Source of the DNA: Candidatus Poribacteria bacterium
Lineage (GTDB): Bacteria > Poribacteria > WGA-4E > WGA-3G
NCBI GenBank assembly: GCA_965214095.1
Contig: OZ243938.1
Coordinates: 3,264,001 to 3,328,000 of the forward strand
Length of the DNA: 64,000 nucleotides
Reading direction: 5' to 3'
Under the pieces are notes generated by a model, which saw nothing but the letters and a program-made list of their open reading frames with translations, did no database searches and had not been told where the DNA came from. Position 1 is the first letter of the stretch, and each line of letters opens with the position of its first letter. Made by a program: the position numbers and the translations under genes. Positions 2,231-21,600 of this stretch are shown here, piece after piece.

Positions 2231-5200
2231 ATGAAAAATGCTGATGTTGAACTCATCCAACGTGTCCTTGATGGTGATGATACTGCGTTTACCGAACTGG
2301 TTAAGAAATACCAGAAATCTGTTCACGCGCTTGCATGGCGGAAGGTTCAAGACTTCCACATTGCAGAGGATATCACACAAGAAACATTCCTAAAGGTATA
2401 TCGGAATCTGTCAACACTGAAGGAACCCCAATCTTTTGCAAGTTGGTTGTATGTCATAGCAACAAACCACTGCAAGACGTGGCTTAGTAAGAAGCAAGTG
2501 TGGACACAATCGTTGGATAACTTCAATAGCGCAGAATTGGAAAAAGCAACCTATTCCAGCTATGTCAGTGCGGAAAACGAGCGGGTATCAGTAGAAGCGC
2601 AGCGTGAAGTTGTCAAAAAGTTACTTGCTAAGTTGCAGGAGAGTGACCGCACGGTCATAACGCTCTATTACCTCGGGGGAATGACGTATGAAGAGATAAG
2701 CAAGTTTTTAGGTGTATCGGTAAGTGCAATCAAGAACCGTCTCTACCGAGCACGCCAGTTTCTAAAGAAGGAGGAACCTATGATAAGAGAAGCTTTAGAG
2801 AATTACCAAATCACTCCAAATCTCACTGAGAACATCATGCAAGAAATATCTCGTCTCAGACCTACACCTTCCACCAGCAAACCCCTCGTGCCGTGGACAG
2901 TTGCTGCTGCAAGTGCAGTCTTAATTGTGTTACTACTTGGCATAGGTAGTCAGAACTTAGTCCATTTCCAACATCCTTATTCATTAGATGCACAAGCAGA
3001 GATGACGGTTGAACTTGTTGACACACCGATTGTGCTAAATATAGATGCAGAACCAGATGTTAGAAATCAATTTGGCAGTATAAATCCTGCTGGTGATAAT
3101 GAGAATGAAGGTCAGAAACCAGATGAAGTTTTGTTGGCTGCCGCAGAAACTGAAACAGATGACAAGGTATCCACATCCAAACAGCAGTGGATTCAATCTG
3201 AACCTATCAAAGGAAGTAGAGTACATAACCTCCATGTTACATCTGAAGGAGAACTCTACGTACTTACTAATACCAATAATGATCCTATCTACAAATTGTC
3301 TGCCAACGGTAACAACTGGTTACATATCTTTGACACTAAGTCATTGGATATTAAAGGTTGGTTAGGAAGTCGCATTGTAAAGTGGAACAATACGTTGTAC
3401 TATGTGCCATCTCATCAACTCTTCGCTATTAATGATGATAGCAAAACGGGTGATTTAATTTACACCTGGGATGGTAACAAATATGTGGAACCCGTTGAAT
3501 TCATTGTAACAGAAGGCACTTTTTATATCGCATTTAGGAATGGAATTTTGCGTTCCGAAGACAATGGTAGAACATGGGAGGAAATTAATGATGGATTAAT
3601 GGATGGAATTAGATCCTTAGTCAAAATCCAAAACACTCTGTTTGTTGGGACAGAAAATGGACTCTACCGTTTAATAGGTGACATCTGGCAACATGTGGAA
3701 TTCGCAGCACCTGTCGGCTGGATCCGTTCAATTGCAGTGACTGAAGATAATCTCTATGTTGCAGCAGACATAAACCGTCGTGCAGTTCCCCTTGAAGAGT
3801 GGTACACCTGGTGGGTATTCCGATCAACTGACATGGGGAACTCGTGGAGAAATATTACACCTAAAAATGCATGGTCTGTAAAGGAGGTCATTCCCTTTGT
3901 TAAACTTATTGCTGTTGGCGAAACACTCTTAATCAGCTGGAGAGATGTTGGTTTAGTACGCTCTACCGATAGTGGAGATACATGGATGCCTGTACAAGAA
4001 CCCAATTCTTACCCCAACATAGGCACTCATACCCCTGCTGTAGCCTTAAATGAACAAACTTTTTATATTGCAAGTGATGATGATGGACTGCATCGTTCCA
4101 TTGACGGTGGTAAGTCGTGGCATGCTATAAACATAGATCGTAAAAGTAAATTTCAGATGGATGACATAATTGCCAATAGAGGATTTGGTAAAGTGGAAAA
4201 CATGCCTACGGCAGTCTATGCGAAAGTTGGAAAAGAAATTGTGAAAACAACCGATAAGGGAAAATTCTGGAATACTGTTCAAATGGAAGAACCAAAGACT
4301 TCACGGGCAACAGTAGAAAGACCTTTTATTACCCAGATAGTCAAATCTGGAGATATTATCTATGCTAAAGGTGGAGATTCCTATGGTGATGGCAGTAGGT
4401 ATTCTTCAGGTGATGGTATTACACGTCTCTACCACATTTCTACAGATGACAATATCCTAAGACGAGTTCCAGACATTCCAATTTTTGATGCTAAACCATT
4501 AAGATTCCATTTGGCGGGAAGAACAACAAACTCTTTTGACTCACCAGAAGAAGAAGAAAAGTTCATAAAACGGATACAAAAAAGTACTGGTGGAGCAACT
4601 CAATTTTTCAAACATTTAGCTAAATGGGATCCAAAACAACCAGATTTCTATATGAAATTGGGGTTTCACGGACCGTTTGCAGTCAGTGCCAATACCTTTT
4701 ATTTGGAATATAACTTCAAACTCTTTCGGTACAAGAAGGGTGAGAGAGAATGGTCCGATACAGGGGTGGAAGAAACCATCGAGTTAACCTTGGATATAGC
4801 AGTGAAAAATCTCAAACTTGCCGTTTCAGGGAACACTGTCTATGTCGGCAAACGGGATGGCACTCTCTTACAGTCATTTGATGCCGGAACCAATTGGATT
4901 GATCTCACACCAGTACTACCATTCCCAGTAAAAGCATTCAAAGATATCGTGATTGTTAATGATACAGTGTATGTAGCAACAGATGCAGGTGTCACCACAT
5001 CAGATCGTGGAAATAATTGGGGTGTTATTACCGATTCAGAAGGCACAAATCTCAATATGGACATACTGACTGCTGATGGTACGATACTTTATGCTGTTTC
5101 CCAAGATACTGGTATCTATCGCTTGGAAAATGATACATGGAATCAGATTGTTTCAGAGATTCCAGAAAACATAACATCTCTCGCTGTCAATGGAAACACA

Positions 5201-5254
5201 TTATTTATTAGCACTGAAAGAAACGGAATGTTCCATTTTACTCTTGATGAATAA
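2231..5254 (+). CDS. ECF sigma factor fused to TM helix and Asp-box/BNR beta-propeller (array copy 1)
   Basis: sigma2 (AEDITQETFLK...FASWLYVIA), sigma4 (MTYEEISKFLGVSVSAIKNRLYRAR), hydrophobic helix PWTVAAASAVLIVLLLGIG, repeated SxDxGxTW boxes. Confidence 0.92.
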   Translation: MKNADVELIQRVLDGDDTAFTELVKKYQKSVHALAWRKVQDFHIAEDITQETFLKVYRNLSTLKEPQSFASWLYVIATNHCKTWLSKKQVWTQSLDNFNSAELEKATYSSYVSAENERVSVEAQREVVKKLLAKLQESDRTVITLYYLGGMTYEEISKFLGVSVSAIKNRLYRARQFLKKEEPMIREALENYQITPNLTENIMQEISRLRPTPSTSKPLVPWTVAAASAVLIVLLLGIGSQNLVHFQHPYSLDAQAEMTVELVDTPIVLNIDAEPDVRNQFGSINPAGDNENEGQKPDEVLLAAAETETDDKVSTSKQQWIQSEPIKGSRVHNLHVTSEGELYVLTNTNNDPIYKLSANGNNWLHIFDTKSLDIKGWLGSRIVKWNNTLYYVPSHQLFAINDDSKTGDLIYTWDGNKYVEPVEFIVTEGTFYIAFRNGILRSEDNGRTWEEINDGLMDGIRSLVKIQNTLFVGTENGLYRLIGDIWQHVEFAAPVGWIRSIAVTEDNLYVAADINRRAVPLEEWYTWWVFRSTDMGNSWRNITPKNAWSVKEVIPFVKLIAVGETLLISWRDVGLVRSTDSGDTWMPVQEPNSYPNIGTHTPAVALNEQTFYIASDDDGLHRSIDGGKSWHAINIDRKSKFQMDDIIANRGFGKVENMPTAVYAKVGKEIVKTTDKGKFWNTVQMEEPKTSRATVERPFITQIVKSGDIIYAKGGDSYGDGSRYSSGDGITRLYHISTDDNILRRVPDIPIFDAKPLRFHLAGRTTNSFDSPEEEEKFIKRIQKSTGGATQFFKHLAKWDPKQPDFYMKLGFHGPFAVSANTFYLEYNFKLFRYKKGEREWSDTGVEETIELTLDIAVKNLKLAVSGNTVYVGKRDGTLLQSFDAGTNWIDLTPVLPFPVKAFKDIVIVNDTVYVATDAGVTTSDRGNNWGVITDSEGTNLNMDILTADGTILYAVSQDTGIYRLENDTWNQIVSEIPENITSLAVNGNTLFISTERNGMFHFTLDE

Positions 5255-5336
5255 AATTCATTTTCTGGCCGGTGTCAAACACCGTCAATCTCATCTCTAT
5301 TATCCTTTTCTCCAAATTTCTCTTAATGCAGAATTA

Positions 5337-5365
5337 TGCAACCGTTTTACACCTAATTTGAGGCA
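5337..5365 (+). promoter_or_regulatory. Putative ECF promoter, class B, with mutated -10 (GCAAC-N19-GGCA)
   Basis: Near-identical to the copy-6 promoter except GTCA is GGCA. Confidence 0.55.
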
Positions 5366-5417
5366 TAATAGTTTGATATGTGTTTGCTCAAACTTTTGCA
5401 TAATGGAGACACACCTG

Positions 5418-8264
5418 ATGAAAAACGACGGTGCACTTATTAGACAAATACTCAGCGGTGATCAAATCGCTTTCGTTGGACTCGTGAAAAAGTATCAAAA
5501 ACAAGTTCACGTACTAGCATGGCGGAAGATTGGAGATTTCCACATTGCCGAGGACATTACCCAGGATGTCTTTTTGAAAGTATATCAGAAACTTCACACT
5601 CTGAAAGATCCGAATCAGTTTTCTGGGTTGCTCTACGTCGTGACAACTAACCTATGCAATACATGGCTCAGTAAAAATCGGGATCATTACCAGGTATCAG
5701 AAGATATTGAGACAACTATGATAGAAAGAGACGTATATTCCCGACATATAACAGAAGAGCGAGTTAAGACCACTCTTGAAGCACAACGTGAAGTGGTCAA
5801 GAGATTACTTGCTAAGTTGAAAGAAAGTGAACGCACGGTAATGACTCTCCATTATCTCGGCGAGATGACAGTAGAAGAGATTAGCAAGTTCTAAGGGGTT
5901 TCTGCTGGAACGATAAAGAGCCGACTTCAACGAGCGCGTAACCGTCTACAGAAGGAGGAAACAATGATTAGAGAAGCACTCAACCATTTTCAAATTTCAC
6001 CAAACCTAACTGAGAACATCATGCAAGAAATATCACGTCTCAAACCTACACCTCCCACCAGCAAACCACTTGTGCCGTGGGCAGTTGCTGGTGCAAGTGC
6101 TATCTTAATATTGTTGATGCTTGGTATAGGCAGCCAGAATTTAGTTCGTTTTCAGCAACCTTATACAATAGATGCACAAGCAGAAACAACAGTTGAACTT
6201 GTTGATGCACCTATTGTGCTAAATCTTGATACGAAACCAGATGTCCGAAATCAATTGGGAAACTCAAATGCGTTGGGTATAAGTGAGAGTGAAGGTCAGA
6301 AACCAGATGAAGTCCTGTTGGCTGCTGCACAGGTGGAAGAAAAAGATGTTTCAGATCCGAAACAACAGTGGAATCTGGCTGTTCCCATAAAAGGGAGTTT
6401 TGTAAGTGGTATGACAATCAATTCTAGTGGTGATATTTTCACTTATAATCATGGACTTATCTTTAAATTATCGTCTGATAAGAAGGAGTGGGAGTACATC
6501 CCCACTGCACATAGACTTAATATCACTCATAGTAAGTCTACACATATGAGACTAAAAGAATGGAACAGTACACTTTATCTCCTTCTAATCGAAAAACTCC
6601 TTACTTCAAAGGATGAAGGTATGACATGGGAACTGCTTTACACCTTCCCAATAGATCGGAATCGTGGACCGTTTGACTTCATAGCATCAGAACAGGCGTT
6701 ATTTGCCATCTTTTCAGACAATACTGTATTCCGTTCTGAAGACAATGGAAATACATGGAATATAGTCACCAATGAATTCCCAAAAGCACTAAACACTTTA
6801 GTAGTAGTGCAAGACATCATGTTTGCTGGAACACGTACAGGATTGTATCGTAAGAACATAGATGGATGGGAACACTTGAAATTTCCAACATCCAGGAATA
6901 TAGAAGTAACTTCAATCTTATCAATTAAGGATCAACTCTATGCTACTGGGTTACCAAACCCTTATTCGGAAAAGGATCAAAATCGGTGGATTTTTCGTTC
7001 AATTGACCTCGGTGATTCATGGGATGACATAACACCTACGATCACTTGGTCGAAAAACAGATGGCCACCAGGAATTACTCTCATTGCGACTGATGATACA
7101 CTCTTGGTAATGGAAAAGGGCATGGTTCTTTCAAAGGATAGTGGAGATACATGGTTATCACCACCATTAACAGGAACTACTCCGACAATGCAAAGGTTTA
7201 GTCCATTTGTTGTGACTGATGATTGTGTCATTTATGTTGGTAGTCCGGAGGATGGTCTATTCCGTTCAACGGATAAAGGCAATTCATGGAAAGCAATCAA
7301 TGTTCAACCAGTTGTTCCACGAATACATAACCTAATCGCATATAAGAGAAGTGACAATACACAGAACACACCATCGGACCTCTATGGTCTTCACTTAGGA
7401 GAGATAGCAAATACTACAAACAAAGGCAAATCTTGGCAAGTCGTTCGAATGGGAAAAGAAATGACAGATAATCCTAACATAATAGGAGTACCTCCAACTA
7501 TCAGTAAAATTGTCAAACACGGTGATATTCTCTATGCAAGAGGTACGGATCTCGTCATGGGAGACATGCTTATCTATCGCGTATCCCGTGATGATAGGAC
7601 GCTTGTACCGATACAAGGGATGCCTGTTCTTAACGCGAAGAGTAATCTTAGAAAAGACCGTATTCAAGAGGGATTAGAGGGAGTCTGCGCTGTTGACAAC
7701 GACACATTCTATATTGAATATAACTATAAACTATTCCGTTGGAAGCAAGGTGATACGGATTGGTTCGACACTGGACTGGAAGAAACCTTACATTTACCTA
7801 AGGACATTTTAAGGAGAACTCTTAAACTGGCGGTTTCAGGGAACACTGTCTATGTCGGTAAACGCGATGGACATTTGTTCGTATCGTATGATTCCGGAGA
7901 AAACTGGATAGACCTCACACCAGCTCTGCCATTCACCGTTAAGTCCTTCAAAGGCATTGTGACTGCTGGTTCCACCGTATATGTCGCAACAGACACAGGT
8001 ATCATCACATCTGATAATGGAAGAAATTGGACTACTATCACAGATACGGATGGAATCAATCTCAAAATCGACTACATGGCTATTGATGACACAACACTCT
8101 ATGGAGTTACAAAGGATACTGGTATCTATCGATTGGAAAATGGCACATGGAATCAGATTGTGTCAGAGATACCAGAGAGAATAACATCTCTCGCTGTTGA
8201 TGGAAACACCTTATATGTAGGAACACAGGATCAAGGTATGCTTCACTATAATCTCAGTGAATAA
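5418..8264 (+). pseudogene. ECF sigma-TM-beta-propeller copy 2, in-frame nonsense codon in sigma4; downstream ORF 5964-8264 intact
   Basis: aag ttc TAA ggg gtt at 5892-5894, versus aag ttc TTA ggg gtt in copy 6. Both halves are in the same frame. The conserved sigma2 W is also L (ttg, 5628-5630). Confidence 0.88.
5964..8264 (+). CDS. TM + Asp-box beta-propeller (C-terminal part of copy 2), possibly translated on its own
   Basis: 766-aa open frame; AGGAGG at 5953-5958, 5 nt before the ATG. Confidence 0.6.
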   Translation: MIREALNHFQISPNLTENIMQEISRLKPTPPTSKPLVPWAVAGASAILILLMLGIGSQNLVRFQQPYTIDAQAETTVELVDAPIVLNLDTKPDVRNQLGNSNALGISESEGQKPDEVLLAAAQVEEKDVSDPKQQWNLAVPIKGSFVSGMTINSSGDIFTYNHGLIFKLSSDKKEWEYIPTAHRLNITHSKSTHMRLKEWNSTLYLLLIEKLLTSKDEGMTWELLYTFPIDRNRGPFDFIASEQALFAIFSDNTVFRSEDNGNTWNIVTNEFPKALNTLVVVQDIMFAGTRTGLYRKNIDGWEHLKFPTSRNIEVTSILSIKDQLYATGLPNPYSEKDQNRWIFRSIDLGDSWDDITPTITWSKNRWPPGITLIATDDTLLVMEKGMVLSKDSGDTWLSPPLTGTTPTMQRFSPFVVTDDCVIYVGSPEDGLFRSTDKGNSWKAINVQPVVPRIHNLIAYKRSDNTQNTPSDLYGLHLGEIANTTNKGKSWQVVRMGKEMTDNPNIIGVPPTISKIVKHGDILYARGTDLVMGDMLIYRVSRDDRTLVPIQGMPVLNAKSNLRKDRIQEGLEGVCAVDNDTFYIEYNYKLFRWKQGDTDWFDTGLEETLHLPKDILRRTLKLAVSGNTVYVGKRDGHLFVSYDSGENWIDLTPALPFTVKSFKGIVTAGSTVYVATDTGIITSDNGRNWTTITDTDGINLKIDYMAIDDTTLYGVTKDTGIYRLENGTWNQIVSEIPERITSLAVDGNTLYVGTQDQGMLHYNLSE

Positions 8265-8281
8265 GTAGATTTGCGCAAATG

Positions 8282-8428
8282 CACAATCTTGTCGGCGCGC
8301 TTTTTATGGTGAGGCATACGAATTATATCTACACTTTCTATGAACGGTAGACGAGGTTTCCTAACCTCGCCTTAGCAATGTGTAGAATTATTTCAATAAT
8401 TTACCATAAATGCACCGACAAGATTGTG
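8282..8428. repeat. Nested inverted-repeat (MITE/REPIN-like) element containing a GTAG REP-like hairpin
   Basis: 14-bp perfect IR cacaatcttgtcgg/ccgacaagattgtg; inner arms tttatggt/accataaa and tctacac/gtgtaga; central gtagacgaggtttcctaacctcgcct at 8347-8372. Confidence 0.6.
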
Positions 8429-8476
8429 TTTTTATACTTTTACATTTCCTATAAATAGACTACGACTAACTCATCC

Positions 8477-8504
8477 TTGACAAACCCACCTAATTTGGTA
8501 GAAT
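8477..8504 (+). promoter_or_regulatory. Putative sigma70 promoter
   Basis: TTGACA-N16-TAGAAT with TG extension, upstream of copy 3. Confidence 0.5.
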
Positions 8505-8551
8505 AGTATCTCACTGTTTCCGACCAACTAATCTGTAAACCTGAAAAATTA

Positions 8552-8580
8552 TGCAACCGTTCTCCTCCTAACTTGCGTCA
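8552..8580 (+). promoter_or_regulatory. Putative ECF promoter, class B (GCAAC-N19-GTCA)
   Basis: Motif and spacing shared with copies 2, 4 and 6. Confidence 0.65.
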
Positions 8581-8629
8581 TTTAGTTTGATACGTAATTA
8601 ATCAAACTATTGATTTCTGGAGATACCTT

Positions 8630-11629
8630 ATGAATAACGACGATGTTGCACTTATCAGACAAATTCTTGATGGTGACGAAATCGCTTTCGCTGAACTTGT
8701 GAAAAAGTATCAAAAACAGGTTCACGTGTTAGCATGGCGAAAGATTGGTGACTTTCATATCGCTGAGGACATTACCCAAGACACCTTCCTGAAAGTGTAT
8801 CAGAGACTACATACCTTGAAAGATCCAAACCTATTTTCTGGGTGGCTCTATGTAATTACGACACGTTTATGTGCTACATGGCTACGGAGAAATAGAATTC
8901 AAACGCAACCTTTGGAGGATGTAGAGGAAAGCATGATACAGAGAGATGCATATTCACAACATGTCGCTGATGAACGCGCTAAAACAACCTCTCAGACACA
9001 ACGGGAAGTAGTCAAGAGACTTCTCGCGAAATTGAAAGAGAGTGAACGTACGGTGATGACGCTCTACTACCTCGGTGAAATGACAGTTGAAGAGATTAGC
9101 AAGTTCTTAGGTGTTTCTGCAGGAACGATAAAAAGCCGGCTTCAACGAGCACGTAACCGTTTACAAAAGGAAGAAACAATGATTAGAGAAGCACTCGACC
9201 ATTTCAAACTCTCACCGAACTTAACTGAAAACATCATGCAAGAAGTTTCGCGCCTCAGACCTACACCTTCCACCAGCAAACCTATAGTGCCGTGGGCAGT
9301 AGCTGCTGCAAGTGCAGTCTTAATTGTATTGATGCTTGGCATAGGCAGTCAACAATTACTCCGTTTTCAAAAACCTTTTTCATTAGATGCACAGGCAGAG
9401 ATGACAGTTGAACTTGTTGACACACCAATTGTGCTAAATATAGACACAAACCCAGATGTCCAAAATCGATTGGGCAATACAAATCCGTTGGGTATAAGTG
9501 AGAATGAAGGTCAGAATCCAGATGACATCTTGTGGGCAGTCGCGCAGGGGGAAGGAAAAGATGTTTCTGCTCCTAAACAACAGTGGATCCTGTCCGAACC
9601 TATCTATGGAAGCATAGTACAAGGTTTATGTGCTACCGAAGAAGAACTTTACGCTGTTAATTTTGCACACATATACAAATGGCAAGACGATAGCACGGGA
9701 TGGCAACAAGTTAGTGGTAACATCAGCGAAGTCAATGGTAAACAGATTGAAATCAATAGTGCAAGTAAAGTTCCGATAGCAAAGTTAGACAATACTCTTT
9801 ATATTGTTTTAGAAAATTTATTCTTAGCTTCAGAAGATGATGGGAAGAACTGGAAGATTGTTCATTCATGGACAGATGATTATCGTCTGCCTAACAAATT
9901 AGTGCTTACAGATCAAGAGTTTTGTGTCCAATTTAACAATGCCGTTTTCCGTTCAGAGGATAGAGGCATGACATGGAAGAATGTGAACGTTGATATATTT
10001 CAAGGTTCCAACTTTCTTATAGCAATACAGAACTCAGTATATGCTGGATCAAACACTGGCTTGTATCGCTGGAATACCGACAGATGGCAACGTATAAAAC
10101 TACCCATACCTGAAGCAATATTGGTCACTGATGCAGCAGCTACCAAAGATCGACTGTACGTAATGGCATCATTAGGTACTGACTTTTTTGATGATAAAGC
10201 AGCACGGAAGGGACAACAGCGGACTTGGTGGATATTCAGATCAACAGACCTCGGAAATTCATGGAAAGATATTACACCGACAAATGCCTGGCCCGTAAAG
10301 GGGGTACCACCCGATATCAATATGGTTGCTGCTGGTGAAACTATTCTGTTAATGGGACAAGGTCTGGTGCGTTCTACCGATGCAGGCGATACTTGGATGC
10401 CACTACAAGCCTCTACCACCTTCCCTATGAAAGTTTCCTCTGATAATACTCCTGTAGCAGTAAATGAAGGCACTTTTTTTGCTTCAAGGGGAGGTTTACA
10501 CCGGTCCACTGATGCTGGTCAATCATGGGAAAAAGTAAGAATCGCTCAGGATAAGATGAGATATGTTATAGAAAACCTAATCAAATTCAATAAGAACAGA
10601 AAAAGTCAAAACAGGCTACCTACTCTCTACGGGATAGATGTGGCAAGGCTTGTAAAAACAACTGACCAAGGTAAGTCTTGGAACGTTGTTCAGGTTGAAA
10701 TGCCTATGACGATACCTGTAAGAGAAGACCAACCATGGATTAATCAACTAACTACAACTGGTGATGTAATCTATGCAAGAGGCCACAGTGATTACCCTAT
10801 CGGAGAATTGCAATACTATCGTGTATCCGAAGATGGGAACACATTAGTTCCTATTCAAGGAATTCCTACCTTTGACTCAAGGAGATTAAGAGACCATCTA
10901 CATGAATCAAAAGATCTCTCTATAGAAACGCTGCAGGAAGAGTTTTCTGGAGCAACTCAATTCTTCAATGCGTTGCTTATATCAGATCCTCAACAACAGG
11001 ATATACTCATACAATCAGGACTTAACGGAACTTTTGCTGTCAGTAATGATATCATCTATATGGAGTACAACTTTAAACTCTTTCGGTGGGAACCAGGAGA
11101 TACAGAATGGCACGACATAAGGCAAGAAGAAACCTCAATCATCGCATGGCAAAATCTCCAACTCGCTGTCTCAGGAGATACAGTCTACGTCGGAAAACGT
11201 GATGGTCACCTTGTCGTATCGTTTGATAGGGGAGATCGCTGGATTGATCTTACACCAGCCCTGCCATTTACTGTTACAACTTTCAAAGAGATTGTGGTTG
11301 CTGGATCCACCGTGTATGTTGCAACGGACGCAGGCCTCATTAAATCTGATGATGGCAAAAATTGGCATATCCTTACTGATTCAAAGGGAACAAATCTCAT
11401 CATGGAACAGTTAGCAGTTGATGGCACAACGCTTTACGGTATTACCCAACAAACAGATCTATATATTTTGGAAAGTGATACTGACACTTGGAAACAGATC
11501 ATCACGGATATTCCGGAAGGTGCAATAATGGATGTAACGGCTAACGGAACATCTCTTATTGTTGCTGGCAGCAATTTATACTTGGGTACAGTATTTGAAG
11601 GTATACTGCATTTAACTCTTGAAGAATAA
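8630..11629 (+). CDS. ECF sigma-TM-Asp-box beta-propeller (array copy 3)
   Basis: sigma2/sigma4 motifs (GVSAGTIKSRLQRAR), TM helix, SxDxGxxW repeats; GGAGA RBS. Confidence 0.92.
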   Translation: MNNDDVALIRQILDGDEIAFAELVKKYQKQVHVLAWRKIGDFHIAEDITQDTFLKVYQRLHTLKDPNLFSGWLYVITTRLCATWLRRNRIQTQPLEDVEESMIQRDAYSQHVADERAKTTSQTQREVVKRLLAKLKESERTVMTLYYLGEMTVEEISKFLGVSAGTIKSRLQRARNRLQKEETMIREALDHFKLSPNLTENIMQEVSRLRPTPSTSKPIVPWAVAAASAVLIVLMLGIGSQQLLRFQKPFSLDAQAEMTVELVDTPIVLNIDTNPDVQNRLGNTNPLGISENEGQNPDDILWAVAQGEGKDVSAPKQQWILSEPIYGSIVQGLCATEEELYAVNFAHIYKWQDDSTGWQQVSGNISEVNGKQIEINSASKVPIAKLDNTLYIVLENLFLASEDDGKNWKIVHSWTDDYRLPNKLVLTDQEFCVQFNNAVFRSEDRGMTWKNVNVDIFQGSNFLIAIQNSVYAGSNTGLYRWNTDRWQRIKLPIPEAILVTDAAATKDRLYVMASLGTDFFDDKAARKGQQRTWWIFRSTDLGNSWKDITPTNAWPVKGVPPDINMVAAGETILLMGQGLVRSTDAGDTWMPLQASTTFPMKVSSDNTPVAVNEGTFFASRGGLHRSTDAGQSWEKVRIAQDKMRYVIENLIKFNKNRKSQNRLPTLYGIDVARLVKTTDQGKSWNVVQVEMPMTIPVREDQPWINQLTTTGDVIYARGHSDYPIGELQYYRVSEDGNTLVPIQGIPTFDSRRLRDHLHESKDLSIETLQEEFSGATQFFNALLISDPQQQDILIQSGLNGTFAVSNDIIYMEYNFKLFRWEPGDTEWHDIRQEETSIIAWQNLQLAVSGDTVYVGKRDGHLVVSFDRGDRWIDLTPALPFTVTTFKEIVVAGSTVYVATDAGLIKSDDGKNWHILTDSKGTNLIMEQLAVDGTTLYGITQQTDLYILESDTDTWKQIITDIPEGAIMDVTANGTSLIVAGSNLYLGTVFEGILHLTLEE

Positions 11630-11705
11630 CGAATCTTTCATGACGGCACAGCCTGATGTCCTTTTCCTGTTTTTCCTCAAATATTTCTTTCTTTTGCAGA
11701 ATTTG

Positions 11706-11733: not shown

Positions 11734-11783
11734 CTATAGGTTGATATATCAAAAACCCTCATATATTAGACAGGATGTATCTG

Positions 11784-14700
11784 ATGAACAACGATGATGT
11801 AACCCTTATTCAACGCATTCTCGCTGATGATGAAGCTGCTTTTGCAGAGCTTGTGAAGAAATATCAGAAAGCGGTGCATACTCTTGCTTGGCGAAAGATT
11901 GACGATTTTCACATTGCAGAGGACATCACACAAGATGCCTTCCTGAAAGTGTATCAGAGACTCCATACACTAAAAGATCCGAAGCAGTTCTCTGGATGGC
12001 TCTATGTGATTACTTCAAACTTATGTGCCACATGGCTTCGCAAAAAACGGTTACGGACACAACCTATAGAGGACGAAGAGGCAGTTATGACTCCAAGAGA
12101 TGTATATTCTCAGCATGTCGTAGAAGAACGGAACCAGGCGGCTGCTGAAACACAACGTGAAGTGGTCAAGAAACTGCTGGCGAGGTTAAAAGAGAGTGAA
12201 CGGACAGTGATGTCACTTTATTATCTTGGAGAGATGAGGGTTGAAGAGATAAGCAGATTTCTGGGGGTATCCACAAGCACAATCAAAAGCCGTCTTAGAC
12301 GTGCACGGAACCGTTTACAGAAGGAGGAAACGATGATTAGAGAAGCCCTTGAACATTTCAAACTTTCACCGAACTTCACCGAAAATATCATGCAAGAAAT
12401 ATCACATCTCAAACCTACACCTTCCACCAGCAAACCCCTCGTACCGTGGACAGTTGCTGCTTCAAGTGCAATCCTAATAGTGTTGATGCTTGGCATAGGC
12501 AGTCAGAATTTAGTTCGTTTTCAGAAACCTTATTCATTAGATGCACAAGCAGAGATGACGGTTGAACTTGTTGACACACCAATTGTGCTAAATATAGACG
12601 CGAAGCCAGATGTTAGAAATCAATTGGGCAGTATAAATCCTGCTGGTGATAGTGAAAATGAAGGTCAGAAACCAGATGAAGTCCTGTTAGCTGCCGCAGA
12701 AACCGAGGATGAGAACAAGGTATCCGTTCCCAAACAGCGGTGGATTCAGTCTGAACCTGTCAAAGGAAGTGATGTAGATGCTTTATCTGTAACATCTAAT
12801 GGTGAACTATACTCAGTTGCTAACAGGCATATTTACAAAATTGAATCCGATGGGGAAGCGTGGCAACAGATCGCAAATATTGATACACTGGATGTTAAGT
12901 ATGGGAGTTCTGCTTTTATCAAAGAGTGGGACAATATGCTCTATCTGTTATTAGATTCTACAATACTTACTTCAAAAGATGACGGTAAGACATGGGAGTT
13001 AGTTAACACACTGCTAACAGATTCTACATTTGCTCTTGATTTCATACTAACTAACCAAGCTTTTTATATCATTTTTTCTAATTACACTGCTTTTCGGTCT
13101 GAAGATAAGGGTGTAACATGGGAGGCAATGAACGTCGATTTTCCGCAGAACCCCAACTCTATAGTAGTGATTCAAGACACAATGTTTACTGGTACATTTA
13201 ATGGACTCTACCGATTAAAGGAAGACAACTGGGTACCAATGAAACTCCCTGGATCTGTTAGTGCAATTCTCTCAGTTGCTGGATCTGATGGGAAGATTTA
13301 TGTTGCGGCAGAGTTTAGCAAGGACGTGACTAGTTCTCAAAAAGTTCGTCAGGGGTTGGCACGGGGCTGGTGGATATTTCGCTCAACAGATCTCGGTGAT
13401 TCATGGGACGATATAACGCCGAAAAACGCATGGCCTGTAATGGGGTTGCCACCTAAAATCAAACTCGTTGCTGTCGGTGAAACACTCTTAGCAATGGAAC
13501 AGGGAATGGTTCGATCGACCGATGCAGGAAACACATGGCAGCCAAGACAACTACCTGGCACCTCACCTTCAATGGATAATAGACTCAGTTATGTTGCTAC
13601 GGTGAACGACAGATCCATTTATGTTGGCAGCAAAAAGGACGGCCTTTACCGCTCCACTGATGGCGGTATATCCTGGGACCCAGTAAATATTAATGGACGA
13701 AACTGGAAAATAATAACAAATTTAATTACGGTTGAAGGAAACAATAAAACACCAAATATGCCGTCCATGTTGTATGCAGAATTCGCAGGAGATATTGTAA
13801 AAACTACTGACAAGGGCAAATCTTGGAGAAGAATCCGGATGGGAATACCTATGACAGCTCCTGTTAGAGAAGTTCCGCCGTATTTTAGTCGGCTAGGTGA
13901 ATTCGGTGGTACCCTCTATGCCAAAACAGATGGTTGGCGCAGCTTTAGAAGCGAATATAAAACAGGTTTATATCGCATCTCTGAAGATGGAAACTCAGTC
14001 ATGTCTATACAAGGCATGCCTACCTTTAACTCAAGCATGTTGAAACATCTATGGAAGAACGGAAGAAGGGGATCTTTAGATGTGTCAGATAAGTCATTCA
14101 TTGAACAGTTGAATGAGAATTTCGTTGGGGCAGACCAGTTCTTTAAAACGTTGGCACAGGAGAAAACCCTAACGCAAAACGAACTTGATCAGGAACAACT
14201 ATATGAGGATCAGGAACGACTCATACTGGAAGGTTTATTAGACGGTGCTTTTGCTGTCAGCGGCGACACGTTTTACTTTGAATACAACTTTAAACTCTTC
14301 CGATGGAAGTCAGGTGAAACAACGTGGTACGACACGGGTGTACAGGAGACGGGTGAACTCCGTTATTTTGAAGCTGCAAAGGCATTTGAAAGAGAGGGAC
14401 TCTCAAATGAAAAGATTGGCGAAATTATTAGGGCTTGGCAATTCGGGTTCAAACTTGCCGTTTCAGGTAACACTGTCTATGTCGGCAAACGGGATGGCAC
14501 CCTCTTACAATCATTTGATGCAGGAACTAATTGGGTTGATCTCACGCCTGTACTACCATTCCCAGTAAAAGCATTCAAAGATATCGTGATTGTTAATGAT
14601 ACAGTGTATGTAGCAACAGATGCAGGTGTCACCACATCAGATCGTGGAAATAATTGGGGTGTTATTACCGATTCAGAAGGCACAAATCTCAATATGGACA

Positions 14701-14891: not shown

Positions 14892-14990
14892 TATACCATA
14901 AGTGAGCGGTACCGAATGCCTCTACTCCATCCAATTATTTTAAATATCCTCACTAAACGTCGTATCCTCTGACAACATAGAACTTATATG

Positions 14991-15048
14991 AATATGAAAA
15001 GAGAGGATAATGGTATAATATCTGAACATTATACTCTCTTTTCATATT
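14991..15048 (+). promoter_or_regulatory. Long inverted repeat enclosing an extended -10 (TGGTATAAT)
   Basis: aatatgaaaagagaggataatg...cattatactctcttttcatatt; homologous to 2096-2137. Confidence 0.5.
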
Positions 15049-15059
15049 CTTTAAAAACT

Positions 15060-15087
15060 TGAGACTTTTTCTCCGCAAGTCGCGTCA
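15060..15087 (+). promoter_or_regulatory. Putative ECF promoter, class A (TGAGAC-N18-GTCA)
   Basis: Matches the copy-1 promoter. Confidence 0.65.
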
Positions 15088-15133
15088 CTATACGTCAATG
15101 TGAACGATTAAGTCCCTTTGTTAGAGGTATCTA

Positions 15134-15440
15134 GTCATAGTACCCAAACCTAAAGGGTTGGGCTTGTGCTTCATAGACGTTGCGTTTCACCAAAAGGATC
15201 ATCCGTCTTATTTCGTCTCCACAGTGGGTTCTAAGCAACCTCACTTGCTCTAAAAGAGCAACTTATTATTTGAGAGTGTGTTTTTCGGACTGGGTTTTTT
15301 ACCTCCCATGTCCCTACCACTCAATTGTTATGTGTCTATGGTAGTGAGAGCGTATATGTTTTTCAGTTTTATGCTCCGCAACATATAGCACCAAAGACTG
15401 CGGACAACCTCACACACGACTGCGTGTGATTGAACTTTCC
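15134..15440 (-). ncRNA. Putative stand-alone structured RNA ending in a TnpB omegaRNA/reRNA-like scaffold
   Basis: Minus-strand 3' part CTGTGGAGAC..TAAGAC..GTCTATGAAGCACAAGCCCAACCCTTTAGGTTTGGGTACTATGAC resembles IS605/tnpB right ends. Several hairpins lie upstream, and there is a dedicated promoter. Confidence 0.55.
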
Positions 15441-15446
15441 GAATAT

Positions 15447-15475
15447 ATTTTAGCAAGTTTGACATTTATTGTCAA
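15447..15475 (-). promoter_or_regulatory. sigma70 promoter inside the element, firing leftwards
   Basis: TTGACA-N17-TAAAAT on the minus strand. Confidence 0.7.
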
Positions 15476-15539
15476 GAAAAACATAGGAGCGGGCAGGAGA
15501 CCCAAACCTAAAGGATTGGGTCTCCTGCCCGAAGATTAG

Positions 15540-18530
15540 ATGAAAAATGCTGATGTTGAACTCATCCAACGTGTCCTTGATGGCGATGATACTGCGTTCT
15601 CAGAGCTTGTGAGAAATTATAAGAAGTCAGTCCATGCGCTTGCATGGCGAAAAGTTCAAGACTTCCACATCGCAGAGGACATCACACAGGAAACATTTCT
15701 GAAGGCATATCAGAAGTTGTCAACTTTGAATGAATCACAGTCATTTGCAAGTTGGCTCTATGTGATAGCGGCGAATGAATGTAAGGCATGGCTTCGTCGG
15801 AAACGTATACGGACACAGTCTTTGGAAGATATCAATGATGCAGAGTTGGAACAAGCGACCTATTCCAACTATGTCATTAATGAAAAAGAACGGACATCAG
15901 TAGAAGCGCAGCGCGAAGTTGTCAAGAAGTTGCTTGCGAAGCTGCAGGAGAGTGACCGTACGGTCATAACGCTCTATTACCTCGGGGGAATGACGTATGA
16001 AGAAATCAGCAGATTCTTAGGTGTATCGGTCAGTGCGATCAAGAACCGCCTCTACCGAGCGCGCCAGTTTCTAAAAAAGGAGGAACCCATGATAAGAGAA
16101 GTTTTAGAGAATTACCAAATCACACCCAATTTCACTGAGAACATCATGCAAGAAATATCACGTCTCAAACCTACACCTTCCACCAGCAAACCGCTTGTGC
16201 CGTGGGCAATTGCTGCTACAAGTACAATCTTAATTATGTTGATGCTTGGCATAGGCAGCCAACAATTAGTGCGTTTTCAGCAACCTTTTACATTAGATGC
16301 GCAAGCAGATATGACGGTTGAACTTGTTGACACACCAATTGTGCTGAATCTGGATTCTGTGCCAGATGTTAGAAATAGACTGGGCAGTATAAATCCTGCT
16401 GGTGATAGTGAAAATGAAGGTCAGAAACCAGATGAAGTCCTGTTAGCTGCCGCAGAAACCGAGGATGAGGACAAGGTATCCACACCTAAACAGCAGTGGA
16501 TTCAGTCTGAACCTATTAAAGGTAGTCAAGTATATAGTCTAAAAGGCACCACGCAAGGTGATCTGTATGTTCTTGTGAGTAATAGAGGAACTCCAAACAT
16601 CCTCAAGTTAACATCGGATGGAAATACTTGGCAATCTATAGATGGTTACCCGTCAGGTACAGTTTGGGGATTTAACGCAGCTATGGTAGAGTGGAATAAT
16701 ACTTTTTACATTATACCATCTAACGAGCTCTTTGCATCAGAAGATGAAGGAAAGACTTGGAATTCACTTTACACGTGGTCTAAAGACCACAATGTGATTG
16801 ATCTTCTACCCATGGATAATGCATTCTACGCTGCATTTCAAGAAGGTATTTATAAGTCTGATGATTTAGGAAAGACGTGGAAAGCAATACAAGATGAGCA
16901 AATCAAGTATATCGAATCTCTAGTAAGAATCCAAAACACATTGTTTGTTGAAACATCCACCAAACTTTACCGATTGGATGACGATGGTTTGAACTCATTG
17001 GAATTTCCAGTACCTGTTAGGAGCATTATTTCAGTTGCAGGAACTGATGGAAAGCTTTATGTTGAAGTAACGTCTAATTCAGATCGTAGTTGGTGGATAT
17101 TCCGTTCAACTGATCTTGGGGATTCGTGGATAGATATAACACCGACAAACGCTTGGTCTATAGAAGGACAACCACCTTATTGCAAATTGATTGCATCTGA
17201 AGAAACCCTGTTGGTAATGGAACAGGGAATGGTTCGCTCAACTGATGGAGGGAATACATGGCTGCCTCCACAGTTACCAGGAACCACTCCTTCAATGAGT
17301 AGTTCATATAATGCAGTTGCTGTAAATCAAGACACCTTTTATGTTGGAAGTAGTGATGGCTTACATCATTCAACTAATAAGGGAAAATCGTGGGATTTAG
17401 TGAGAGTCGCTCCAGATATGAGAAGACGTGTAATGTTTAATCTAATCGCAACCAAAAATAGTGTCGATAGTCTAAACTTGATGCCGACACTCTATGGGAT
17501 AGTTGAAGTCGGAGAGATAACAAAAACTAATGATGATGGCAAGTCATGGGAGACTGTTCGTGTTGATACACCTATGTCAACATCAAACAGAGGAAACGTA
17601 CCAACAATAACCCAGATTGTTAAATCAGGCGATGATGTCTACGTTAAAGGAGGATCTCTTGGTGAGGGAAAGGTAGGTCATTACATAGTATCTGACAACG
17701 GGAACACTTTAGTCCCAATTCAGGACATGCCAACTTTCAGTTCAACTGAATTAAGGATGCGTCTATTTACTTCTAAAGATCTTACGATAGGAGAGTTGCA
17801 AGAAGATTTCTCTGGTGCAAAAAATTTCTTCCAACAGATGCTTAATTCAGCACCTCAACAACTAATTAAGCTTGAAGAACTTGGACTTCGTGGCCCTTTT
17901 ACTGTCAGTGGTGACACATTCTATACGGAATACAACCTTAAACTCTTTAGATGGAATCCTGGAGATACAGAATGGTATGACACTGGTCAAGAAGACATTG
18001 GTGACTTTCCCTTGGATGAATTGTTCATAAGCACATTTAAGTCACACTTCATTGTTCCCAAACTTGCAGCTTATGACAACACAGTTTACTACGGAAAGCG
18101 GAATGGACAATTGGTAGTATCGTTTGATAAAGGTAATAATTGGGTTGATCTCACTCCAGGTCTACCCTATAAGGTAAAAACATATAATAGTATCGTGTTT
18201 GTGGGTTCCACAGTATATGTGGCAACAAATGCAGGTATCATTACATCAGATGATGGGAGAACGTGGAAAACTGTCACTGATTCTGGTAGATCTAATATCA
18301 TCATGGCGCATTTAGCTGTGGACGGTACAACACTCTATGGCATTACTAACACAACGAGTATCTACCGTTTAAATAGTGAAAGTGGTGCTTGGGAACAGGT
18401 TGTCACTAAGATACCAGAAATTAAAAATCTCAAAATAAGGGATTTCGTTACATCTTTCGCGGTTGCTGGAAGGACGTTGTATGTAAGTACTGAAGTAAAC
18501 GGAATGTTCCATTTTAACCTTGATGAATAA
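15540..18530 (+). CDS. ECF sigma-TM-Asp-box beta-propeller (array copy 5), separated from its RBS by the insertion
   Basis: Sigma domain very similar to copy 1; frame intact. Confidence 0.92.
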   Translation: MKNADVELIQRVLDGDDTAFSELVRNYKKSVHALAWRKVQDFHIAEDITQETFLKAYQKLSTLNESQSFASWLYVIAANECKAWLRRKRIRTQSLEDINDAELEQATYSNYVINEKERTSVEAQREVVKKLLAKLQESDRTVITLYYLGGMTYEEISRFLGVSVSAIKNRLYRARQFLKKEEPMIREVLENYQITPNFTENIMQEISRLKPTPSTSKPLVPWAIAATSTILIMLMLGIGSQQLVRFQQPFTLDAQADMTVELVDTPIVLNLDSVPDVRNRLGSINPAGDSENEGQKPDEVLLAAAETEDEDKVSTPKQQWIQSEPIKGSQVYSLKGTTQGDLYVLVSNRGTPNILKLTSDGNTWQSIDGYPSGTVWGFNAAMVEWNNTFYIIPSNELFASEDEGKTWNSLYTWSKDHNVIDLLPMDNAFYAAFQEGIYKSDDLGKTWKAIQDEQIKYIESLVRIQNTLFVETSTKLYRLDDDGLNSLEFPVPVRSIISVAGTDGKLYVEVTSNSDRSWWIFRSTDLGDSWIDITPTNAWSIEGQPPYCKLIASEETLLVMEQGMVRSTDGGNTWLPPQLPGTTPSMSSSYNAVAVNQDTFYVGSSDGLHHSTNKGKSWDLVRVAPDMRRRVMFNLIATKNSVDSLNLMPTLYGIVEVGEITKTNDDGKSWETVRVDTPMSTSNRGNVPTITQIVKSGDDVYVKGGSLGEGKVGHYIVSDNGNTLVPIQDMPTFSSTELRMRLFTSKDLTIGELQEDFSGAKNFFQQMLNSAPQQLIKLEELGLRGPFTVSGDTFYTEYNLKLFRWNPGDTEWYDTGQEDIGDFPLDELFISTFKSHFIVPKLAAYDNTVYYGKRNGQLVVSFDKGNNWVDLTPGLPYKVKTYNSIVFVGSTVYVATNAGIITSDDGRTWKTVTDSGRSNIIMAHLAVDGTTLYGITNTTSIYRLNSESGAWEQVVTKIPEIKNLKIRDFVTSFAVAGRTLYVSTEVNGMFHFNLDE

Positions 18531-18612
18531 AACCATTTTCTGGACGGTGTCAAACACCGTCCTTCTCATCTCCATCATCCCTTACCTCCAAATTTCTCTT
18601 TATGCAGAATTA

Positions 18613-18641
18613 TGCAACCGTTTTACTCCTAATTTGAGTCA
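18613..18641 (+). promoter_or_regulatory. Putative ECF promoter, class B (GCAAC-N19-GTCA)
   Basis: tgcaaccgttttactcctaatttgagtca. Confidence 0.65.
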
Positions 18642-18691
18642 TAATAGTTTGATATGTGTTTGATCAAACCTTCGTATAATGGAGACACCTG

Positions 18692-21600
18692 ATGAAAAAC
18701 GACGGTGCACTTATTAGACAAATACTCAGCGGTGATCAAATCGCTTTCGCTGAACTCGTGAAAAAGTATCAAAAACAAGTTCACGTACTAGCGTGGCGAA
18801 AAATTGGAGATTTCCACATTGCCGAGGACATTACCCAGGATGTCTTTCTGAAAGTATATCAGAAACTTCACACTCTGAAAGATGTGAATCAGTTTTCTGG
18901 GTGGCTCTACGTCGTTACAACAAACCTATGCAATACATGGCTCAGTAAAAATCGGATGCACAACCAACCGTTGGAAAACATTGAGACAACCATGATAGAA
19001 AGAGACGTATATTCCCATCATATCACAGAAGAGCGAGTTAAGACCACTCTTGAATCACAACGTGAAGTGGTCAAGAAACTCCTCGCTAAGTTGAAAGAAA
19101 GTGAACGCACGGTAATGACTCTCCACTATCTCGGCGAGATGACAGTGGAAGAGATTAGCAAGTTCTTAGGGGTTTCTGCTGGAACGATAAAGAGCCGACT
19201 TCAACGTGCGCGGAACCGTCTACAGAAGGAGGAAACAATGATTAGAGAAGCACTCGACCATTTTCAAATTTCACCAAACCTAACTGAAAACATCATGCAG
19301 GAAGTATCACATCTCAAACCGACACCTCCCACCAGCAAACCCTTCGTGCCGTGGGCGGTTGCATCTTCAAGTATAGTATTGATTATGATGATGCTCGGAA
19401 TTGGGAGTCAGTACTTAGCCTATTTTCAGAAGCCGTATAGTTTTGATGCTCAGTCAGAGATGACGGTTGAACTAATTGATACACCAATAGTTCTGAATCT
19501 TGATACGCAACCGAGAGAACAATATCAGTTTGGAATTGCAAATGCAATTAGTGAAAATGATAACAGCGGACAGAATCCCGATGAAGTCTTATTAGCTGAT
19601 GGGAAAACTGAAGGTGAAGACATTTCAATACCTAAGCAAGAGTGGGTTGAATATGAACATCAGCCATTCGCTTTTCCAAGCAAATTACTTGCGACACCTG
19701 AAGGTGAACTCTACACTTTGACCGCTGGTGGACACCTCCACAAATTGAAGAGAGATGGTGAAAGTTGGGAACATCTCAATGATATAAGTTCTTTAATTGA
19801 TGATTTTATTGCTCCTGATTCACTAATGGCGGAATGGAACGGTATTCTATACCTGGTGTGGTATAATGAATTCTATGCGTCTAAAGATGATGGAAAAACG
19901 TGGGACTTGGTATATAAATGGGAAATACCTGCTGCGGGAGGGGATTTTGAAGTTCAGGAACTGGTGTTAACGGAAGAATCTTTTTATCTTGTTTACCCAG
20001 ATGCTGTTTTCCGTTCTGAGGATCAAGGAAAAACATGGAAGAATATGCGTGATGAATTTCCAAATGTTCCAGACTCTATAACTGTTTTTCAAGATACAGT
20101 ATTTGTCACATCAGGTACAGGTTTCTATCGAGGCAATGCCGGCAGTTGGCATAAGTTAGCGTTACCAATTCCTGAAACTGTCTATATTACTTCAGTCGCT
20201 GCTTCTAAAAACCGATTATATGTTATGGCAAATTTAGGATCTGACTTTGATCCCCAAGCAGCATCAGAGGGGCGGCAACGAACATGGTGGATATTTCGCT
20301 CAACTGATTTGGGGAATACGTGGAAAGATATAACACCCACAAACGCTTGGCCCATTAAAGGCTGGTACCCAGATCTGAAACTTATTGCTGCTGGAGAGAA
20401 CATCCTGCTAATGGAAAAGGGTATGGTAATGTCAACTGACGGAGGAGAATCTTGGCTGCCACCATTGAAACCCAATGCTTCACCTTCAATGGATTCCTAC
20501 TCACCTGCTGTGGTACTAAACGACCATAGCATTTATGTTGGTAGCGGCGATGGATTTCAAAGTTCCAAAGATGGTGGAAAAACTTGGGAAAGTATTAAAA
20601 TACCAGCACGGAAAAAGTTTTCAAGGAATATCATAGCTAATTTAATCGTATATGATGGAATTGAGAATTCACAAGAAACACCTTCAGCGGTCTATGTTAA
20701 GTCTTGGCGATCACTTGTCAAAACTACAGATAGAGGTAAATCTTGGAATCCTGTTGAAAAGGAAGTACGAATGACAGAACCCTTCAGGGAGGAACAACCG
20801 GAGATTCTTAGCATAGTAGAAGCTGATGATGGACTTTATGCTAAAGGGGGTAGTGGCTATGACACTGTAAAGAAAGTTAATATGTATAGAGTATCTGAAG
20901 ATGGAAACTCGCTGATTGGTATTCAAGGTTTTCCATACTTACACTCTCATTCAATAACTAACAAATTGGATAGGCATCACAGGAACCCCTTAGGGCTGTC
21001 TGATACAGCATTGGTTGAGGAACTTCAAAAGAATTACAAAGGTGCAACGCAGTTTTTCAAGGAATTAGTAGATTTGGCACAGGGAGAATTAGTAGATTTG
21101 GGACAAGGCGGTATTCAAGGCCAAATTATTCTGGTTCAACGTGATCTTATAAATAGAGGTTTAAACGGTACATTTGCGGTAAGTGGAGATACGTTCTACT
21201 TAGAATACAACTTCAAACTCTTCCGATGGACACAAGGTGAAAGAGAATTGTATGATACAGGTGTGGAAGAGACGATTGGTCTTACTATCAGGTTGTCTGA
21301 TGGCAAGTATTTACCCGCTACACTTATACCTCCCGCTGACATGCCAAAAGGACGTGCACTGGAAAAGTTTCGTGCTTTGCATAATCTCAAACTTGCTGTT
21401 TCAGGTAATACTGTCTACGTTGGGAAACGAGATGGCCACCTTCTTGTATCTTATGATAGAGGAGATAATTGGACAGATATCACACAAAGTTTGCCGCATC
21501 CGGTTATTGCGTTCAAGGATATAAAGTTCGTTGGGTCCAAAATATATGTAGCAACGGATGCTGGTGTAACTATGTCACATAATGGAATACAGTGGCATGC

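Follow-up and report, generated by a model that had tools for sequence, protein, structure and literature searches.

A conserved Shine-Dalgarno sequence and in-frame ATG at the sigma/linker join of fused ECF sigma factor genes in a sponge-associated Candidatus Poribacteria genome

The DNA analysed here, a stretch of 64,000 nucleotides hereafter called the window (C1:3264001-3328000), belongs to the genome of an uncultured sponge-associated Candidatus Poribacteria bacterium (5.25 Mb, 41% GC). Positions 1-21826 of the window encode on the forward strand the 3' end of one gene followed by six complete genes, all of one family, in which an extracytoplasmic function (ECF) sigma factor is continued in the same frame by a linker, a membrane helix and a large outside sensor. 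At the join between sigma region 4 (sigma4) and the linker, these genes carry a strong Shine-Dalgarno (SD) sequence followed by an in-frame start codon, and the comparison with distant relatives shows that this motif is conserved at the codon level, beyond shared ancestry. The reading we favour, with moderate confidence, is that the join represents a retained sigma/anti-sigma coupling signal, which would still drive internal initiation and yield a free sensor/anti-sigma-like protein from each gene.

The window copies consist of sigma2-sigma4, a 35-residue linker, one hydrophobic segment and a beta-propeller sensor of ~770 residues. Pfam matches within residues 7-181 were Sigma70_r2 (E 5e-15), Sigma70_r4_2 (5.7e-16) and Sigma70_ECF (5e-8). 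No match to sigma regions 1 and 3 was found at E <= 0.01 in the three of six copies scanned, which hence affiliate with the ECF (group 4) sigma factors, defined by regions 2 and 4 without 1 and 3. Downstream of the membrane segment, the sequences matched BNR, Sortilin-Vps10 and PSII_BNR. Neither the FecR family (E <= 0.01) nor zf-HC2 or another anti-sigma family was among the Pfam matches of the three scanned copies, and a Cys/His motif is absent from the 35-residue linker. Each copy has one outstanding hydrophobic 19-mer (residues 219-238, Kyte-Doolittle 1.98-2.34; next best <= 1.52). The proteins thus have the layout of a one-chain sigma/anti-sigma hybrid, with the frame open in five of the six window copies. 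A 570-aa Peptidase_M50 (RseP-type) protein is encoded in the same genome.

A structure model of residues 1-260 was calculated with AlphaFold2 (AF2; 44-row alignment, mean predicted local distance difference test score 75.5, without the membrane part). Its fold matches AlgU, SigW and sigmaE. The best superposition was obtained with CnrH in its CnrY-bound form (4cxf_A; TM-score 0.73, normalised to target length, root-mean-square deviation (rmsd) 4.5 A), as compared with an rmsd of ~27 A against ECF sigmas bound to RNA polymerase. The closest state of the model is therefore the closed, anti-sigma-bound CnrH, which hints that the linker may cover the sigma part. A complex prediction for the sigma part (residues 1-183) and the linker (184-232), run without controls, gave scores of 0.02 and 0.07, with the mark at 0.32. 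Met184, the residue encoded by the internal ATG, is modelled inside a continuous helix (164-190), and a confident helix at 198-209 follows.

A preliminary description of this DNA had reported AGGAGG-N5-ATG at the K-E-E-x-M junction of five of the six copies. All five sites were found on the forward strand (2769, 5953, 12322, 16078 and 19227), in frame and nowhere else in the 64 kb, with 0.39 expected and none of 100 shuffles reaching five. Their codons are AAG GAG GAA xxx ATG, i.e. K-E-E-(P/T)-M; copy 3 reads AAG GAA GAA ACA ATG and, as had been described, has AAGGAAG in front of its ATG. The internal SDs were also said to be stronger than those of the main starts, and this holds for the predicted pairing with the anti-SD, which amounts to -12.2 to -12.6 kcal/mol at the five sites, -6.2 in copy 3 and -1.8 to -7.3 at the six main starts. 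The 16S rRNA 3' end (...GGATCACCTCCTTTCT) contains the canonical CCUCC anti-SD. GGAG peaks 6-8 nt ahead of the first ATGs of long open reading frames (ORFs), and AGGAGG usually ends 5-8 nt before ATG, which indicates that SD-led initiation is normal in this organism. The sites at the join are accordingly what is expected of a functional internal start, namely an in-frame start codon 5-9 nt behind the complement of the organism's own anti-SD.

Codon and SD statistics were calculated from 3,333 ORFs with a length of 150 aa or more. Lysine is encoded by AAA in 70% and AAG in 30% of cases and glutamate by GAA in 75% and GAG in 25%, and the preference for AAA and GAA that had been suspected in these genes is thus a property of the genome. 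Inside genes, AGGAGG occurs 470 times versus 999.8 expected (0.47) from synonymous-codon shuffles of 3,313 ORFs. In-frame AGGAGG-N4-9-ATG located at least 30 codons into an ORF is found at only 25 sites in the 3,333 ORFs, and 16 of these are in the present family. Likewise, K-E-E is written AAG GAG GA(A/G) in 15 of 18 cases inside the family (21 ORFs caught by the family motif), versus 19 of 247 outside it. A dnaX-like slippery site (A-AAA-AAG) at the join was considered and rejected, being found in some copies only. The coordinates of the genes and of their internal SD and start codons are compiled in Table 1.

Table 1 Genes of the fused ECF sigma family in the window and features at or near their sigma4/linker joins (window positions)
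Feature	Position	Strand	Remarks
Preceding array member, 3' part, sensor only	1..1896	+	Open frame entering at window start; junction upstream, C1:3260671-3261165
Copy 1, 1007 aa	2231..5254	+	ECF sigma + linker + membrane helix + BNR/sortilin-like propeller; r2 residues 23-89, r4 127-178, membrane helix 220-238
Copy 1 internal SD (AAGGAGG) + ATG 2780	2768..2782	+	-12.6 kcal/mol
Copy 1 hydrophobic segment VPWTVAAASAVLIVLLLGI	2888..2944	+	35 residues past internal Met; Kyte-Doolittle 2.31, next best 19-mer 1.52
Copy 2	5418..8264	+	Same architecture, sigma part broken by in-frame TAA; 766-aa frame from ATG 5964 intact
Copy 2 in-frame TAA, sigma region 4	5892..5894	+	K-F-stop-G-V-S vs K-F-L-G-V-S (Leu TTA) in other copies
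Copy 2 internal SD + ATG 5964	5952..5966	+	First start of only long open frame
Copy 3, 999 aa	8630..11629	+	
Copy 3 weakened SD AAGGAAG (9167-9173) + ATG 9179	9167..9181	+	-6.2 kcal/mol
Copy 4, 1038 aa	11775..14891	+	Length counted from first ATG; family-conserved start = ATG 11784
Copy 4 internal SD + ATG 12333	12321..12335	+	
Copy 5, 996 aa	15540..18530	+	
Copy 5 internal SD + ATG 16089	16077..16091	+	
Copy 6, 1044 aa	18692..21826	+	
Copy 6 internal SD + ATG 19238	19226..19240	+	

In this genome, 29 paralogues include the join; 15 of these lie in a single tandem array on one strand (~57 kb, C1:3229415-3285826), of which window positions 1-21826 are the 3' end. A homologue search returned sequences whose source names are Candidatus Poribacteria. 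In the same genus, 23 of 24 other genomes had 11-52 family matches each; two further families of the order had a few matches apiece, and in a fourth family of the order none was found among the five genomes searched. The family junction set comprised 84 sequences, i.e. the 29 paralogues and loci from 33 other genomes. As representatives, 39 junctions with less than 80% nucleotide identity over 363 nt, from three families of the order, were used.

The preliminary description had cautioned that the copies share ancestry, which is right for the six copies of the window; the pattern, however, persists in far more distant relatives. Counted from the start codon at position 0, the third base is G at codon -4 in 35 of 37 representatives and at codon -3 in 21 of 27, as opposed to only 2 of 25 at -2. 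The background of G-ending K/E/Q codons is 173/388 (45%) on the upstream sigma4 side and 85/317 (27%) on the downstream linker side. By parsimony, position -4 requires two changes over 37 tips, and the 11 sigma4-side columns upstream of -5 require two to nine. Background use of AAA and GAA in distant homologues, the outcome that had been named as speaking against a role for the motif, is therefore not what these relatives display. The anti-SD pairing profile of the representatives has a single peak at -14 (mean -9.4 kcal/mol; overall mean -1.0, next best window -5.25), and in 29 of the 39 the site at the join is the strongest anti-SD pairing of the 363 nt.

The two other families of the order share 35-52% protein identity, have a GC content of 50% and differ in the join peptide (K-K-E-M-I-P-M-M, K-E-E-L-T-M, R-E-E-I-T-N-M). 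AAGGAG or GAGGAG persists in them 8-9 nt ahead of a conserved ATG. In the 50%-GC relatives, GAG is used at the site in 44 of 48 and AAG in 30 of 40 cases, versus 40% for each elsewhere in the same ORFs. Over the whole set of 84, position 0 is ATG in 74; the others are ATA (3), CTG (2), and ATT, GTG, CTT, GTA and ACA (1 each). An SD of -9 kcal/mol or stronger together with a start codon is present in 72 of the 84 junctions, the SD alone in six, the start codon alone in three and neither in three. Conservation of SD and start thus exceeds what the protein sequence requires, with the caveat that other columns are frozen as well.

In the mechanism we propose, an ancestral sigma/anti-sigma pair would have been fused in frame, giving rise to a tethered ECF sigma in one chain, with sigma2-sigma4 and the 35-residue linker presumably cytoplasmic, followed by the membrane helix and the large outside propeller. 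The coupling SD and ATG would have been kept at the sigma4/linker join, where selection would maintain them at the nucleotide level. Ribosomes would still start at the join and produce a sigma-less protein of linker, membrane helix and propeller with a predicted mass of ~92 kDa, whose layout would be that of an ordinary single-pass anti-sigma/sensor. As no recurrent internal promoter was found, this short product would come from the same mRNA as the full-length protein, and the weak SDs at the main starts suggest that it could be the more abundant of the two. Its likely role would be that of a free sensor/anti-sigma in excess of the tethered sigma, which may recapture or buffer released sigma or act as a partner of the full-length protein. 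We infer both the initiation in intact fused genes and this role from sequence comparison. The use of the internal ATG as a start is indirectly supported by relatives which keep the frame after the loss of their sigma part.

Seven such copies with a broken or deleted sigma keep an open frame of 766-813 codons from the internal ATG. They were chosen from ranked lists and attest to the existence of sigma-less derivatives, not to a rate or an enrichment. In copy 2, the TAA breaks the sigma part, and its only long open frame consequently begins with the internal ATG. Copy 2 has a sigma part nearest to that of copy 6 (synonymous divergence (dS) 0.19), with a ratio of non-synonymous to synonymous divergence (dN/dS) of 0.22 versus 0.06-0.11 in other sigma comparisons, and has Leu at the family-invariant Trp72. 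Its sensor is nearest to a gene of genome G005 (L086; dS 0.48), with a dN/dS of 0.27, as in intact copies; the sigma of that gene is unrelated to the copy 2 sigma (dS 3.8). Since sigma and sensor of copy 2 have different nearest relatives, the modules are mosaic and recombination near the join is real. A copy in genome G051 (L097) has a 1-nt deletion in sigma4 and 813 codons open, with a copy-5-like sensor (dN/dS 0.21 versus copy 5). Its sigma is the copy 2 module (dS 0.108, dN/dS 0.33; 13 non-synonymous and 10 synonymous differences), and the gene is likewise mosaic, with a copy-2-like sigma and linker (dS 0.61, first 60 codons) and a copy-5-like propeller (dS ~0.1). The lesions of copy 2 (TTA to TAA) and of G051 (GGGG to GGG, ~70 nt before the internal ATG) are independent and fall into adjacent codons of the same sigma module, which may reflect coincidence, an error-prone spot or an assembly error.

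In the remaining cases, sigma2 was lost (G055 and G020, the latter beside a transposase remnant), the sigma part was frameshifted (G053 and G134) or it was deleted altogether (G155). The G155 gene is a stand-alone gene of 809 codons that starts at the internal ATG behind AAAGAGGAACCA (GAGG-N6), and its orthologues in three other species are fused, with frames of 972-977 aa. On the terminal branch leading to it, dS is 0.37 and dN/dS 0.19-0.22, versus 0.19-0.23 for the fused orthologues, which suggests either a very recent deletion or a gene that works without sigma from this ATG. Copies in G049 and G041 end at contig edges and are uninformative. A different outcome is seen in G043 (L111, G043:C164, locus position 1000), where a TAG stands exactly at the join (Q-K-E-stop) and GTC replaces ATG; what results is an intact sigma gene on its own and an open frame of 803 codons that lacks an obvious start. 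An excess of sigma over sensor lesions was considered and dropped: the lists are ranked, the one obtained with the sigma-less query favours intact sensors, and the one obtained with the junction query shows no excess.

The fused form predominates. When 1.84 billion representatives were searched with the sigma-less query, 73 of the best 150 matches reach the first 12 query residues; 65 of these have at least 94 residues upstream (61 with 177-224), one has 42 and seven start at or next to the Met. The same sigma and linker module, again with the MIREA join, also occurs joined to outside domains of the WD40 type, in two genera of the family (P0263 / L101, G055). At E <= 1e-60, matches were obtained in 91 of 176 genomes of the phylum. 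In several genomes, otherwise full-length matches of these WD40-type relatives repeatedly contain single in-frame stops (TAG and TAA).

Operons of the same genome suggest how the signal may have originated. Among 12 stand-alone sigma genes inspected, at least four are followed by a start codon no more than 11 nt from the sigma stop, with the SD in the last sigma codons. One such unfused pair reads ATG GAG GAG ACA GAA GTATGA (M-E-E-T-E-V-stop), with an ATGA overlap, and a second L-M-E-T-stop followed by ATG. The fused join K-E-E-T-M-I is always spelled ATGAT and looks like a coupled sigma/anti-sigma junction that would have come to be read through in frame. The reverse step is seen in a relative from G002, in which a 1-nt insertion at the join gives an ACG-TAATG stop/start overlap. 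The preliminary description had offered two explanations, a second, sigma-less isoform from each gene or the fossil junction of a sigma/anti-sigma fusion. The two are compatible and both are partly supported: the fossil agrees with the unfused operons and their anti-sigma SD in the last sigma codons, and the isoform gains indirect support from the sigma-lesioned relatives that keep the frame, with the restriction that 8 of the 29 paralogues have no ATG at the site.

The feature recurs in other fused sigma genes. Seven of ten further fused ECF genes in this genome have, no more than 40 codons past sigma4, an in-frame ATG behind an SD of -8.3 kcal/mol or stronger, as compared with an expectation of 0.23 derived from 700 random ORFs; the ten carry different extensions, one of them FtsZ-like, and some of the seven are mutual paralogues. 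Fused one-component ECF sigma genes might, as a tentative generalization, encode two products, a tethered sigma and a free sensor/anti-sigma at a ratio fixed by the mRNA. The fusion would then add a tethered form to a sigma/anti-sigma pair, and the signal would let sensor modules survive the loss or swap of their sigma. The FtsZ-like case is an ECF sigma fused in frame to an FtsZ-like protein (C1:4552337-4554121), with AAAGGAGAA-N5-ATG at the join. Its use as a proof of principle was dropped: the genome has two other FtsZ-like genes, and the fused one therefore need not supply free FtsZ.

Several observations weigh against internal initiation at the join or limit the evidence for it. The eight paralogues without ATG have CTG, ATT, GTG, CTT or ATA instead, and with Met184 located in a predicted helix, the structure may itself call for a hydrophobic residue at this position. 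The share of G-ending K/E/Q codons is already high in the part encoding sigma4, and codons are frozen elsewhere, too, e.g. a Glu column with 87% GAG (58 sequences) and AGT in 23 of 25 at -46. The copies recombine and hence are not independent observations. The predicted accessibility of the mRNA at the site is unremarkable (57th-76th percentile, 39 representatives). With regard to the derivatives, the TAA of copy 2 was neither confirmed nor refuted by independent contigs, the G051 lesion is a homopolymer indel that could be an assembly error, and truncations past the join (~11 of the 150 matches listed out of 867, junction query) outnumber sigma lesions, as length alone or neutral decay would predict.

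Part of this evidence would also fit a functionless relic of the fusion, conserved through a needed K-E-E-x-M at the end of the last sigma4 helix, inherited codons and gene conversion among paralogues. The replacement of Met184 by I, L or V in the eight paralogues, the recombination documented by copy 2 and the frozen codons of other columns are consistent with such a relic, which we nevertheless consider unlikely. Synonymous divergence between subfamilies is saturated (dS not computable or >1.5) and the flanking codons vary freely. The G-ending codons persist in three families, including cases where the motif lies one codon further upstream, and are kept in contexts as different as K-K-E-M-I-P-M, R-E-E-I-T-N-M and K-G-E-T-G-M. 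Moreover, the genome depletes such motifs two-fold, and unrelated fused sigma genes share the feature.

Alternatively, the join, being a short run of identical nucleotides between the sigma and sensor modules, could serve as a recombination joint for the swapping of modules, at which SD and ATG rescue the sensor after the loss of sigma, with a benefit at the level of the lineage and no second product. The mosaic copies (copy 2 and G051) and the retention of the sensor frame in the seven sigma-lesioned copies would agree with this. We regard it as improbable, since breakpoints are not limited to the SD (that of G051 lies ~60 codons downstream), homology for recombination requires neither an SD nor a correctly spaced start codon, and second-order selection of this kind is usually weak.

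Even less probable is that the SD-like sequence slows elongating ribosomes after sigma4 and thereby aids folding or membrane targeting of the full-length protein. Pausing by internal SD-like sequences is disputed. Only the position of the motif, on a domain boundary and 35 codons ahead of the membrane helix, speaks for such a pause, and targeting could not benefit from it because the membrane helix is not yet made at this point. A pause would also leave unexplained why 74 of 84 junctions have an in-frame ATG spaced as at a start, why unrelated fusions share the pairing and why sigma-less derivatives exist. An internal ECF-type promoter with a -35 element GGAAC/GAAAC within AAGGAGGAAC, driving a separate transcript, was rejected as barely credible: the six window copies have GGAAC or GGAAAC overlapping the motif, but distant relatives, with AAGGAGATGATACCG or GAGGAGTTAATT in its place, do not conserve this element, a transcript beginning ~30 nt downstream would miss the ATG, and a scan of the forward strand for sigma70-type promoters revealed no recurrent site (59 versus 52 expected).

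With respect to expression, contigs from two metatranscriptome runs, 93-95% alike, cover the propeller of copy 1 (3219-5221) and, with a 52-nt piece, the join (2763-2814). The gene of a relative thus appears in RNA libraries, DNA carry-over not being excluded; assembled RNA contigs of a relative at 93-95% cannot reveal translation starts. Two further public runs (word share 0.90-0.92, library type not on record) cover the region in fragments. Contig C2 of the assembly (32,066 bases) has a GC content of 64% versus 41% on the main contig and is possibly foreign DNA or was placed in this genome by a binning error.

The comparative finding does not depend on any of these readings: a strong SD is retained through rare codons in a genome that otherwise purges such motifs. 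ECF sigmas carrying a fused extension are regarded as signalling devices made of a single protein. Should translation start at the join, the working unit would be a pair from one gene, in which two ribosome-binding sites set how much tethered sigma is made relative to free sensor. Models and annotations of these very large families, and their re-use as orthogonal switches, would then have to be adapted.

In its architecture, the family is a new addition to an established type. The literature searched describes neither a conserved internal start at the sigma/extension join, or any internal start within a fused ECF sigma, nor this Poribacteria family (main text in the case of PMC7826278, where 'Poribacteria' and 'BNR' do not occur). 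The closest known example is IutY of Pseudomonas putida (ECF243), a single chain of ECF sigma domain, one membrane segment and outside sensor, from which regulated proteolysis by Prc and RseP frees the sigma part (PMC8999054, PMC5411451). The Poribacteria proteins share with IutY the sigma, the single membrane helix and the outside sensor in one chain, and an RseP-type gene is present here as well. In contrast to IutY, their outside domain is a BNR/sortilin-like propeller rather than FecR-like, and the family has 29 copies per genome, many of them in a tandem array. A second product is not discussed in the IutY paper, in which the terms 'internal', 'start codon' and 'translation' occur 0 times.

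In ECF48, ECF52 (SCO4117), ECF53 and the ECF57 of Planctomycetes, an extension stands in for a separate anti-sigma, and such families are multi-copy in certain phyla (5.3 ECF57 per genome in Planctomycetes; PMC8999054, PMC7826278). The Poribacteria genes resemble these groups in the fusion of sigma to an extension and in copy number, the likeness to ECF57 being one of architecture only. Unlike in ECF52 and ECF53, the zinc-finger anti-sigma domain of those extensions was not found in the Poribacteria copies. A further lead, based on the AF2 superposition, is the possible likeness to CnrH-CnrY, a short class II anti-sigma system; the linker of the Poribacteria proteins is short as well, at 35 residues, and has a confidently predicted helix at 198-209.

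Classic examples of internal initiation in bacteria are IF2, ClpB and CheA. More widely, nested in-frame genes expressed through internal initiation are documented in bacteria (10.1101/520783, PMC9430671). The Poribacteria join resembles them in having a start codon behind a good SD within a longer ORF, from which a C-terminal product would be made, and differs in its location where a regulator joins its own inhibitor/sensor, a setting for which the literature searched gave no precedent. With the coupled sigma/anti-sigma operons of this genome, finally, it shares the SD in the last sigma codons, and it differs from them in that the stop codon is missing and both parts are read in one frame.

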